Shown here: positions 15,135 to 17,235 of the stretch, one piece after another
Layout: every line of letters begins with the position of its first letter
Position numbering within the stretch: the first letter of the stretch is position 1
From: Candidatus Thorarchaeota archaeon
Lineage (GTDB): Archaea > Asgardarchaeota > Thorarchaeia > Thorarchaeales > Thorarchaeaceae
Direction of reading: 5' to 3'
Assembly: GCA_048884785.1 (NCBI GenBank)
Contig: JBHLQM010000055.1
Span: 1-24,768 of the forward strand
DNA length: 24,768 bases
Translations under genes and position numbers: made by a program
Notes under the pieces: generated by a model
Told to the model about the DNA's origin: nothing
Databases searched by the model: none
What the model saw: only the letters and a program-made list of their open reading frames with translations

Positions 15135-15285
15135 CGTATCATCGTTCAGTTGTTCCAAAATACAACAAAAATGGCTTCCGCTATGGATTGTTTGAAAACT
15201 ATTTGGAGTCCAAAACTCAAGCAAATAGGCAGTTTCGTTGATACTTATGGTAGACCTTATTAGGAAGAAGATATCATCCTCATAC

Positions 15286-15381
15286 GGTAGTCAGGTGGCT
15301 AGTGGGGCAAACTACTTCTGTAACATGCCCTCATAACTCCCCCCTCCTACCAGTTGGCCCTATTGGCACTGACTACCACCT
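15286..15381 (+). ncRNA. Candidate structured non-coding element (long hairpin with C-rich loop)
   Basis: Arms 15286-15313 and 15352-15377 pair over ~25 bp including three G-U pairs on the + strand. It lies in a 455-nt gene-free gap. Confidence 0.45.
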
Positions 15382-15533
15382 AGTTTCTGCTTCTAGTTCT
15401 GAGAACCATTCGGTATTTCGATATGCCAAATCAAAAATCGCGCCATTTCACTAAAACAATGGTAGACTGGAACCCTGATTAGACCCGGTAGCAACATTCT
15501 CTGATGACGAAGTCAGTTTCGGCATTAAACCAG

Positions 15534-15590: not shown

Positions 15591-16400
15591 ATGGTATTCA
15601 ATCCTTTAGGTCCAGGGCTAGAATTGGTATGGGATATTGTGGCATTCGTCATATCTCTGATCCTGATTTTGCTACTTGTCCAAATCAATGCGGCCATTGA
15701 AAAAAGCGGAAAGCTATCAACAGACGTTACTCGCAAGGTCATACACATCTTTGCAGCACCAGTGTGGGTACTATCGTGGCTCCTCTTCTCGGGTGGAGTA
15801 TTCAGCCGTTGGTTGGCACTTATTGTACCCTTATTCTTCGTGCTACAATTCGTAGCGATTGGCACTGGGAAGATGAAGAATGAAGACTTCGTGAGATCAA
15901 TGTCAAGGAGCGGGGACCCCAAGGAGCTTCTTGGAGGGACCCTTTACTATGCATTCTTGATGATAGTCTTTGCAATCCTATGGTTCTATGTCCCTGCTTC
16001 TGGGAATCTTAGTCAGGCAACACCCCTTGCACTGATTGCCTTTGGATGTCTAGCTGGAGGAGATGGTCTGGCTGATGTTATTGGCCGAAAATATGGTGGC
16101 GAGCGAAAGTTTGGGATTGGTGGAGCGCAGAGGACTGTTGCGGGCTCGATTGGGATGTTTATCGGTTCATTCCTGTTTAGCATCGTGTTGGTTTTCTTCT
16201 TCTCATTTGAAGCAACAGCATTTGCGATAGCAAATATGGTGATACCTATCTTGATTATCAGCATCGTTGCAACGATTGTAGAGGCTCTATCACCAAAGGG
16301 CCTCGATAATTGGACAGTTCCAATCTCAGTTATCATCATGATCCTGCTATTGCCAATTCTCGGATTTGCATGGGCATTCCCTGCCCAAACACTATTCTGA
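15591..16400 (+). CDS. CTP-dependent prenol kinase (farnesol/phytol/dolichol kinase family)
   Basis: Multi-TM protein with motifs DVTRKVIHI, VRSMSRSGDPKELLGGTLYY, GGDGLADVIGRKYG, RTVAGS and GLDNWTVP, resembling plant FOLK/VTE5 motifs. Confidence 0.88.
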   Translation: MVFNPLGPGLELVWDIVAFVISLILILLLVQINAAIEKSGKLSTDVTRKVIHIFAAPVWVLSWLLFSGGVFSRWLALIVPLFFVLQFVAIGTGKMKNEDFVRSMSRSGDPKELLGGTLYYAFLMIVFAILWFYVPASGNLSQATPLALIAFGCLAGGDGLADVIGRKYGGERKFGIGGAQRTVAGSIGMFIGSFLFSIVLVFFFSFEATAFAIANMVIPILIISIVATIVEALSPKGLDNWTVPISVIIMILLLPILGFAWAFPAQTLF

Positions 16401-16416
16401 GAAGGTGAAACCTCCA

Positions 16417-17235
16417 ATGAACCGAGAAGTGACTGTAATTAAACTCGGGGGATCCTTGCTGACTGACAAAACCAAACCGTATACATACAGAAAGGAAGTT
16501 CTCGAGTCTGTAGCTCATGAGATAAGAGAGTGCATCGATGCCAAACTAATAGATCGTCTGGTTCTTTTGCATGGCGTGGGCTCATACGGTCACCCTCCGG
16601 TTCTTGAACACAAACTCTACAAAGGATTTCTCGGAGAGGAGCAGTTACTGCCCCTCTCTAAGACTCAGGAAGAGGTTGGAGAGTTTCGCCATATCATTGT
16701 GAGAGAGTTTCAAAAAGCCGGAGTACCAATCTGCCTGATGTATCCTTCTTCAATGATGAAATCTGATACAATGCATATCACGCACCATTTCCTTGATCCA
16801 GTGAAGGGATTCCTTTCAGTTGGCATGGTTCCATTAATGGGCGGTGATATACTCATCGACAGTGCAATGGGATGGAGTGTTGCCAGTGGCGACCAAATGG
16901 CTGCGATTGTCGCGGCTGAGCTGAGAGCCAAACACTTGATCTTCGTTTCGGACGTGAAAGGAATCTATGATTCTGACCCCAAAGTAGATCCAGATGCCCA
17001 TCTAATAGAGAGCATAGACCTCAGCAATTTGGAGGCGGCACTATCAAGAATGGGGAAATCAGGTGTAGTTGATGCAAGTGGAGCGATGAAGGGGAAGCTC
17101 AAATCGATTGAGCCGCTGAAGCAATACATCAAGGAAGGTATGGATGTTGCTCTACTGTCATTGATGGAACCAGGTGTTCTGAAAGGTTACTTGGAAGGAC
17201 ATGATGTTCCAGCGACTAGGATTGTAGTGAAATAA
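16417..17235 (+). CDS. ipk: Isopentenyl phosphate kinase (amino acid kinase fold)
   Basis: Motifs VIKLGGSLLTDK, LHGVGSYGH (IPK-type His), VPLMGGD, SGDQ, SDVKGIYDSDP and DASGAMKGK. Start ATG 16417 follows GGTGA. Confidence 0.88.
   Translation: MNREVTVIKLGGSLLTDKTKPYTYRKEVLESVAHEIRECIDAKLIDRLVLLHGVGSYGHPPVLEHKLYKGFLGEEQLLPLSKTQEEVGEFRHIIVREFQKAGVPICLMYPSSMMKSDTMHITHHFLDPVKGFLSVGMVPLMGGDILIDSAMGWSVASGDQMAAIVAAELRAKHLIFVSDVKGIYDSDPKVDPDAHLIESIDLSNLEAALSRMGKSGVVDASGAMKGKLKSIEPLKQYIKEGMDVALLSLMEPGVLKGYLEGHDVPATRIVVK

Follow-up and report, generated by a model that had tools for sequence, protein, structure and literature searches.

A probable small RNA gene of a multi-copy thorarchaeal family, with a covarying stem and a constant C-rich loop

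Introduction

RsaE/RoxS of the Firmicutes is a stand-alone small RNA of about 100 nt, and its exposed C-rich stretches are thought to pair with G-rich ribosome binding sites. RsaE carries UCCC motifs in two hairpin loops together with a Rho-independent terminator, and it is conserved across a whole order. Asgard archaea are the closest known prokaryotic relatives of eukaryotes, and to our knowledge their non-coding RNAs are almost unexplored. In the Alphaproteobacteria, the cuckoo RNAs (CcsR1-4 / alpha-r14 group) consist of 2 to 4 adjacent short hairpins, each of which has CCUCCUCCC in its loop, and their stems are variable (PMC4615179). Among the archaea, sRNA41 of Methanosarcina mazei is an intergenic small RNA that has been proposed to mask ribosome binding sites (PMC5867862).

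The locus analyzed here lies on a 24,768-nucleotide stretch of DNA from Candidatus Thorarchaeota archaeon, the whole of which is called the window below. Like the cuckoo RNAs, the RNA of the window belongs to a set of multi-copy small RNAs with a fixed C-rich loop motif that resembles an anti-Shine-Dalgarno sequence, with free stems and with varied genomic contexts. It differs from them in that it forms one long rod with a loop of 40-55 nt, in which there are two different motifs, UGCCCUCA and CUCCCCCCUCCUACCA, and not the motif of the cuckoo RNAs. In addition, the thorarchaeal family is archaeal, is found in one order only among the genomes searched, and has neither sequence homology with the cuckoo RNAs nor a match to them in Rfam. 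That is, the thorarchaeal family is not a member of the cuckoo RNAs, and at most it works alike.

With RsaE/RoxS the RNA has in common the probable length of about 100 nt, the predicted stand-alone gene, the exposed C-rich stretches and the order-wide conservation, but there was no Rfam match to RsaE, and the RNA of the window is a single rod and loop behind a putative archaeal promoter. It resembles sRNA41 as an archaeal intergenic small RNA, and masking of ribosome binding sites is the action proposed for sRNA41; however, sRNA41 comes from another phylum and is encoded by a single gene, not by a set of paralogues, and its targets and regulation are known. Homology between the two, judged without the sequence of sRNA41, is unlikely. 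The Y RNAs, finally, are also about 100 nt long and hold their 5' and 3' ends in a long stem around a pyrimidine-rich internal loop. Unlike them, the thorarchaeal RNA has no TROVE protein in its own genome, no match to Y_RNA in Rfam and no conserved bulged Ro-binding helix, the last because its stem sequence varies freely. The Y RNA reading was rejected, the TROVE domain PF05731 giving 0 matches in the window's own genome, which is 91% complete and in which the positive controls were matched.

Results and discussion

Predicted structure of the RNA

The first-pass annotation had described a long G-U-rich stem at this place, and the minimum free energy (MFE) fold bears this out. The plus strand of 15286-15381 folds at -35.05 kcal/mol, compared to a mean of -26.0 for dinucleotide shuffles (z -2.47), and equal or better folding was reached by 2 of the 200 shuffles. 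The minus strand of the same segment was unremarkable, with a z of only -1.19. In the MFE fold, 15286-15377 (+) is a 20-bp interrupted rod that closes an unpaired, C-rich loop of about 40 nt. The parts of the RNA and of its surroundings are as follows.

15258..15265, +: TATA-like promoter box TTATTAGG, in the context CCTTATTAGGAA; ends 21 nt 5' of the first stem base
15286..15294, +: 5' strand of the outer helix, GGUAGUCAG; partner in the MFE fold 15369-15377; the RNA probably begins here
15298..15308, +: 5' strand of the middle helix, GCUAGUGGGGC; pairs with 15357-15367; aligns to P1 of the family model
15310..15313, +: 5' strand AACU of the innermost 4-bp helix, weak and not conserved; pairs with 15352-15355
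15314..15351, +: unpaired loop, with the core AUGCCCUCA (15325-15333) and CUCCCCCCUCCUACCA (15337-15352)
15352..15355, +: 3' strand AGUU of the innermost helix (MFE fold, orthologue alignment)
15357..15367, +: 3' strand of the middle helix, GCCCUAUUGGC (MFE fold, orthologue alignment)
15369..15377, +: 3' strand of the outer helix, CUGACUACC (MFE fold, orthologue alignment)
15378..15400, +: single-stranded tail ACCU, then pyrimidine-rich sequence with short T runs; the RNA probably ends or is terminated in this zone

A small internal loop separates the outer helix from the middle helix, and a 1x1 mismatch separates the middle helix from the innermost one. Read from the sequence, the middle helix has exactly three G-U pairs on the plus strand. 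The 38-nt loop of the window copy contains CUCAUAACUCCCCCCUCCUACC, which is unpaired in the MFE fold, and the loop is unpaired also in the MFE folds of most orthologues. The loop is almost without G, which keeps it from folding on itself, and the stem holds it out as a single strand. An open reading frame of 50 codons with a GTG start (window 15302-15454, +) overlaps the RNA; it is very unlikely to be coding, since the orthologues lose all similarity directly 3' of the stem.

Copies, types and distribution of the family

The window's own assembly has four copies of the RNA, on contigs C55 (the window), C41, C117 and C20. Two of the further copies have the loop in common with the window but not the stem, and the fourth was found by a covariance model, which detected the four copies with E values from 2e-27 to 7e-11. 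We ran a loop pattern (ATGCCCTCA, 1-16 bases, CTCCCCCCTCC, with at most one mismatch) over 400 genomes of the phylum. The pattern matched 80 of the 85 genomes of the window's family (16 genera) and the one sampled genome of the sister family in the same order. Among about 310 genomes of other Asgard families it matched none, apart from one doubtful match (G116) that was not upheld by the covariance-model search. A reversed control pattern gave almost no matches in the same 400 genomes. The covariance model of all types agreed with this distribution: among 80 genomes of 32 other families only the sister-family genome was matched, and no homologue was found in the 79 genomes of 31 families outside the order. 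There are about 180 pattern matches in total and 1 to 7 copies per genome; the genomes surveyed are for the most part incomplete metagenome bins.

The copies fall into orthologous types, which differ in the stem and in the spacer between the two C-rich motifs. The spacer ranges from 3 to 14 nt among the paralogue types, between which only the C-rich motifs stay fixed. Type A, to which the window belongs, is a rod of 20-25 bp around one open loop. Types B, C and D are closed by a helix P1 of 13-14 bp. Inside it stands a short hairpin, UUUCGU/ACGAAA, whose loop carries UGCCCUCA; in the internal loop, CUCCCCCCUCCUACCA occupies the 3' side.

Several copies have features of their own. The type-B paralogue G000:C41:11726-11920 (-), which corresponds to about 1470-1660 on the minus strand of L003, is longer than the window copy. 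It has a BRE/TATA-like sequence AAAGGTTAATAAG about 95 nt upstream of P1 and, between this box and P1, a covarying 5' hairpin, AGGUAGGUGUG...ACUUACCU. The 5' strand of P1 recurs in the loop of this hairpin, GUGGGAAC, which could compete with it for the 3' strand, UUCCCAC. The locus G000:C24:7725-7805 (-) (L059) was a weak match of the first model (E 0.72) and was missed by the second; it retains CAAUUACG and CCAACCACGAUUCCCGC and has lost the C-rich run, and it may be a decayed fifth copy.

Two further copies, L024:1406-1605 (G318, type A) and L029:1438-1559 (G323, type B), have an insert of 30 nt in the invariant loop. The insert reads AGG...hairpin, with AUUAC...GGGGAA in the hairpin loop, and is placed between CCUC(C) and (C)UACCA; deleting exactly 30 nt restores the invariant loop sequence in both copies. 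Its hairpin covaries, with GCGGG/CCCGC in one and UCAGG/CCUGA in the other. Judged by sequence, the insert looks like a possible mini-intron in a non-tRNA gene. The bulge-helix-bulge motif of tRNA-type introns is defined by two 3-nt bulges with a 4-bp helix between them at the exon-intron junctions. The folds of L024 and L029 have one helix, one bulge of 5-6 nt and one hairpin, and no canonical motif of this kind.

Covariation of the stem and assignment of the strand

A search for homologues and for covariation was among the checks that the first-pass annotation had proposed, and both were found. In the alignment of 15 type-A orthologues from several genera, 88.8% of the cells of the main register are paired and 12 of the 24 pairs show compensatory changes. 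None of 500 shuffles matched these values, and when the partner strand was slid, 25-54% of the cells were paired. The signal is carried by the two outer helices: the outer helix is 96% paired with compensatory changes in 5 of its 9 pairs, and the middle helix is 92% paired with such changes in 6 of 11. The stem of the annotation was upheld in these two helices and not in its innermost part, AACU/AGUU, where only 63% of the cells are paired.

In type B (18 copies, MAFFT alignment A2), 97.3% of the cells are paired and 9 of the 13 P1 pairs are compensatory. Again 0 of 500 shuffles came up to these values, and a shift of the partner strand by 1-3 columns left 33-54% of the cells paired. About 50 consecutive bases of the type-B loop are invariant in the 18 copies from many genera, whereas P1 differs in almost every species; the invariant stretch includes positions that are not C-rich. 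When all types were taken together, 16 of 19 pairs were compensatory, in an alignment that was fitted to the covariance model and leans towards the structure of that model. The loop core AUGCCCUCA ... CUCCCCCCUCCUACCA is invariant in the alignments A1, A2 and A4. That is, the closing stem is different in nearly every species and yet is kept paired, with at least half of its pairs compensatory, around a constant loop. The shuffle control overstates significance for related sequences, and the slid-partner control and the asymmetry described below are more robust.

The three G-U pairs had been taken as a sign of selection at the level of RNA, and the orthologues agree with this. In the stem cells, G-U/U-G occurs 43 times and A-C/C-A 4 times; in the model-independent alignment the numbers are 19 and 3. 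The large excess of G-U over A-C shows that the helix is maintained on the strand with the C-rich loop, which is the plus strand of the window. We also considered folding energy as a criterion for the strand and rejected it as uninformative (means of -33.6 kcal/mol for the plus and -34.7 kcal/mol for the minus strand), because the G-rich complement of the loop folds on itself.

The annotation had also drawn a second, mutually exclusive register, AGGUGG-UAGU with ACUA-CCACCU. This register can be drawn in the window but has no support from the orthologues: it is paired in 73.2% of the cells, compared to 71.8% in shuffled columns, and 95 of 500 shuffles were as high. Orthologues whose 5' side reads AGGCGG, for example, still have CCACCAAC on the 3' side.

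Promoter and probable ends of the transcript

A TATA-like octamer precedes the first stem base in 14 of 16 type-A orthologues, which come from several genera; its end lies 21-23 nt 5' of that base. The octamer is exactly TTATTAGG in 11 of the type-A orthologues and usually lies inside CTTATTAGGAA. The archaeal TATA box lies about 26 nt before the start site. Taken together, the position of the box and this promoter geometry suggest that transcription would start at or beside G15286. A/T-rich boxes are present also upstream of types C and D and of the type-B copies with the extra 5' hairpin.

On the other side, the similarity of the orthologues stops within a few bases 3' of the stem, and a pyrimidine-rich sequence with short T runs follows. 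Nearly all copies of types B and C have ACC as the tail, which is variable in type A (ACCU, AACU, AACC, ACCC). In the window, the termination signals 3' of the stem are weak, with T runs of three only. One 220-nt contig of a relative covers 15247-15378; it comes from a sequencing run of unspecified type and has no bearing on expression. A second run, presumed to be of RNA, gave no sequence for this place.

The promoter box CCTTATTAGG (window 15250-15270), a near-palindrome, has the RNA gene on one side and the divergent OsmC-like gene on the other, and in some orthologues the OsmC frame comes to about 9 nt from the box. One box may serve both directions, in which case expression of the RNA could be linked with that of a gene for oxidative or osmotic stress.

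Genomic context

Type A adjoins a divergent OsmC-like gene. Across genera only this upstream gene, on the opposite strand, is kept, and the downstream genes differ. Type B is flanked by a radical-SAM gene on one side and by a PhzF-like or TldD gene on the other, and type C adjoins a 460-residue protein of unknown kind. Every paralogue type thus has its own syntenic slot across genera, beside unrelated housekeeping genes. Neighbours that are unrelated and specific to the type indicate that the RNA is neither the leader of one gene family nor a mobile repeat.

The RNA had been placed between a divergent osmC and a prenol kinase operon. The OsmC-like gene upstream was confirmed, and the downstream operon was confirmed only in part. 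The downstream pair (window 15591-17235, +), whose genes overlap by 35 nt, consists of a 269-residue protein without a Pfam match and a 289-residue protein of the amino-acid-kinase family; for the first of these genes the name of the operon was not borne out. We take the amino-acid-kinase family to be the fold of isopentenyl phosphate kinases. The gene beside the RNA has AGGAGG 8 nt before its ATG.

Relation to the ribosome and search for targets

The loop contains the anti-Shine-Dalgarno core CCUCC, and it has CCUCCUAC in common with the 3' end of the 16S rRNA of a family member, GGAUCACCUCCUAC. On the 3' side of the stem, the tail is often CACCU(C), and CACCU is also present in this 16S 3' end. 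The annotation had taken the loop to be complementary to GGAGG, spacer and AUG together. The CCUCC core and the sequence common to 16S rRNA stand, but the spacer of 3 to 14 nt across the family does not agree with a complement of the whole site.

Shine-Dalgarno sites are in use in the genome of the window. Of the -20 to -1 regions in front of long ORFs (first ATG), 7.7% contain GGAGG, compared to 1.3% of controls, a sixfold enrichment with a peak at -12 to -16. In a genome-wide search, ten-base complements of the loop occurred at about chance level and gave no specific target. Wobble-tolerant 9-mer sites lay before a start codon in 38 of 177 cases, none of them convincing. The best site, a perfect complement of 11 nt on contig C65, falls within a reading frame rather than at a ribosome binding site.

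Duplex energies of the loop with the 16S rRNA of its own genome (contig C29, where the gene is cut at the contig end) were within the range of shuffled 16S. The idea of an rRNA guide was rejected, as the complementarity to 16S rRNA did not go beyond chance; a search for 23S rRNA in two genomes gave none. In the 16S rRNA gene of L075 (G313:C2), GUAGCGG of the last helix is followed by hairpin-rich non-16S sequence and not by GAAGCUGCGGAUGGAUCACCUCCU as in G335; an intron or an insertion close to the 16S 3' end is a possible cause.

Comparison with known RNA classes

The first-pass annotation had recognised no known RNA family, and this agrees with the catalogue. A cmscan with the 4227 models of Rfam 15 gave no match over the RNA in a 901-nt stretch, even with E values up to 10, and nothing reached the gathering threshold in the whole window or in eight 10-kb loci with other copies. 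ARAGORN found 0 tRNA or tmRNA genes in the window. We found no paper on the family or on small RNAs of its lineage. The thorarchaeal family is absent from Rfam 15 and belongs to no known family, although it resembles a known kind of regulator.

Several classes were considered and rejected. A tRNA-like acceptor end was rejected by inspection, as the ACCA of the loop has no pairable T arm or acceptor stem 5' of it. An archaeal H/ACA guide RNA is recognised by a K-turn or K-loop in its upper stem and by an ACA box that follows the pseudouridylation pocket at a distance of about 14-16 nt. In the present family, inspection showed ACC/AAC of the tail at about 35 nt from the inner hairpin and no tandem G-A pairs, and no H/ACA model of Rfam was matched. 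C/D and K-turn readings were excluded by inspection and by Rfam. Miniature inverted-repeat elements have conserved terminal inverted repeats and many near-identical copies at non-syntenic sites. Here the arms differ and the interior is fixed, and the four diverged copies are each syntenic across genera.

Interpretation

We think, with a probability of about 0.9, that the hairpin at 15286-15377 is a real RNA gene of a multi-copy family. It would be a stand-alone gene from 15286 to about 15385 (+) for a small non-coding RNA of probably 95-100 nt, transcribed from its own TATA box and ending shortly 3' of the stem. The long G-U-rich closing rod would present a single-stranded loop of about 40 nt with the motifs UGCCCUCA and CUCCCCCCUCCUACCA, the stem serving only as scaffold and stabiliser. 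The loop, by the stretches CUCCCCCCUCC or UGCCCUCA, might then pair in trans with G-rich, Shine-Dalgarno-like stretches of mRNAs and so mask their ribosome binding sites. Masking of this kind has been described for sRNA41 (PMC5867862) and proposed for the cuckoo RNAs (PMC4615179). We put the chance that such pairing is the mechanism at about even. Three options had been offered at first, namely a trans-acting anti-Shine-Dalgarno RNA, a switch and a small repeated element, and it is the first that fits best, with its target and transcript putative.

The failure to find a specific target and the invariance of about 50 nt count against anti-Shine-Dalgarno pairing, and they make a protein or RNP partner a serious rival. 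According to this explanation, the RNA gene is the same, but its invariant loop would serve a protein or RNP as platform or decoy, for instance an RNA-binding protein of the KH or Sm-like type, or a factor whose normal target is the 16S 3' end. About 50 invariant bases in type B, every position of the loop being kept across genera while the stem changes freely, are more than a pairing seed needs, so that on this point a protein or RNP partner fits at least as well. The two similar C-rich motifs in each RNA, CCUCCUAC as a sequence common to the loop and the 16S 3' end, and the lack of a convincing mRNA target are also in keeping with it. On the other hand, no partner gene is linked to any copy, the neighbours being unrelated housekeeping genes, and the Ro60/TROVE partner is absent from the 91% complete genome. 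In addition, it is only the C-rich motifs that are fixed between paralogue types, and this is how a pairing seed is expected to look. We consider a protein or RNP partner possible but less likely than pairing with mRNAs. It is unlikely, in our opinion, that the family is a mimic of the 16S rRNA 3' end specific to the Asgard lineage, which with CCUCCUAC in the loop and CACCU in the tail would compete for Shine-Dalgarno sites or for factors of the 16S 3' end. We know of no regulator of this type described in archaea.

The remaining explanations have to account for the covariation and for the neighbours of the copies. A cis-acting switch or leader of osmC or of the downstream operon, working through two mutually exclusive registers, seems quite improbable to us. 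The second register can be drawn in the window, and the nearly palindromic TATA-like box beside the divergent osmC start would allow for shared regulation; but the pairing of that register in the orthologues is close to that of the shuffles, so that the switch of the annotation lacks comparative support. Moreover, the paralogues adjoin unrelated genes, type A keeps only the upstream OsmC gene, on the other strand, with varying genes downstream, and a loop almost without G has no ligand pocket on its own. Still less credible is a reading without any RNA on the plus strand, that is, a DNA-level element (a protein site with an inverted repeat, a G-quadruplex or i-motif, or a miniature mobile repeat) or a mini-ORF on the minus strand behind GGAGG. 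The element is multi-copy, and its minus strand does read GGAGGGGGGAG followed by ATG or TTG, with at least four G tracts. However, a cruciform or a minus-strand RNA would not tolerate G-U and A-C at 43 to 4, and the TATA-like box lies at promoter distance on the plus strand. Variable arms around a fixed interior are the opposite of terminal inverted repeats, and the copies are syntenic across genera, each of the four diverged paralogues in its own slot; hence the small repeated element, in the sense of a mobile repeat, was not sustained. The mini-ORF would have 11 to 21 codons, its peptides are not conserved, and it runs into the covarying stem, where the changes are paired and not synonymous.

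An RNA family that extends through the order and has strong comparative support provides a concrete handle on post-transcriptional control in an uncultured lineage, and its seed alignment is suitable for Rfam. If the family were a mimic of the 16S 3' end, it would stand for a global control of translation initiation or ribosome maturation that is tuned by paralogues. If, instead, the loop is an anti-Shine-Dalgarno decoy, bacteria and archaea would have reached the same regulatory solution independently.
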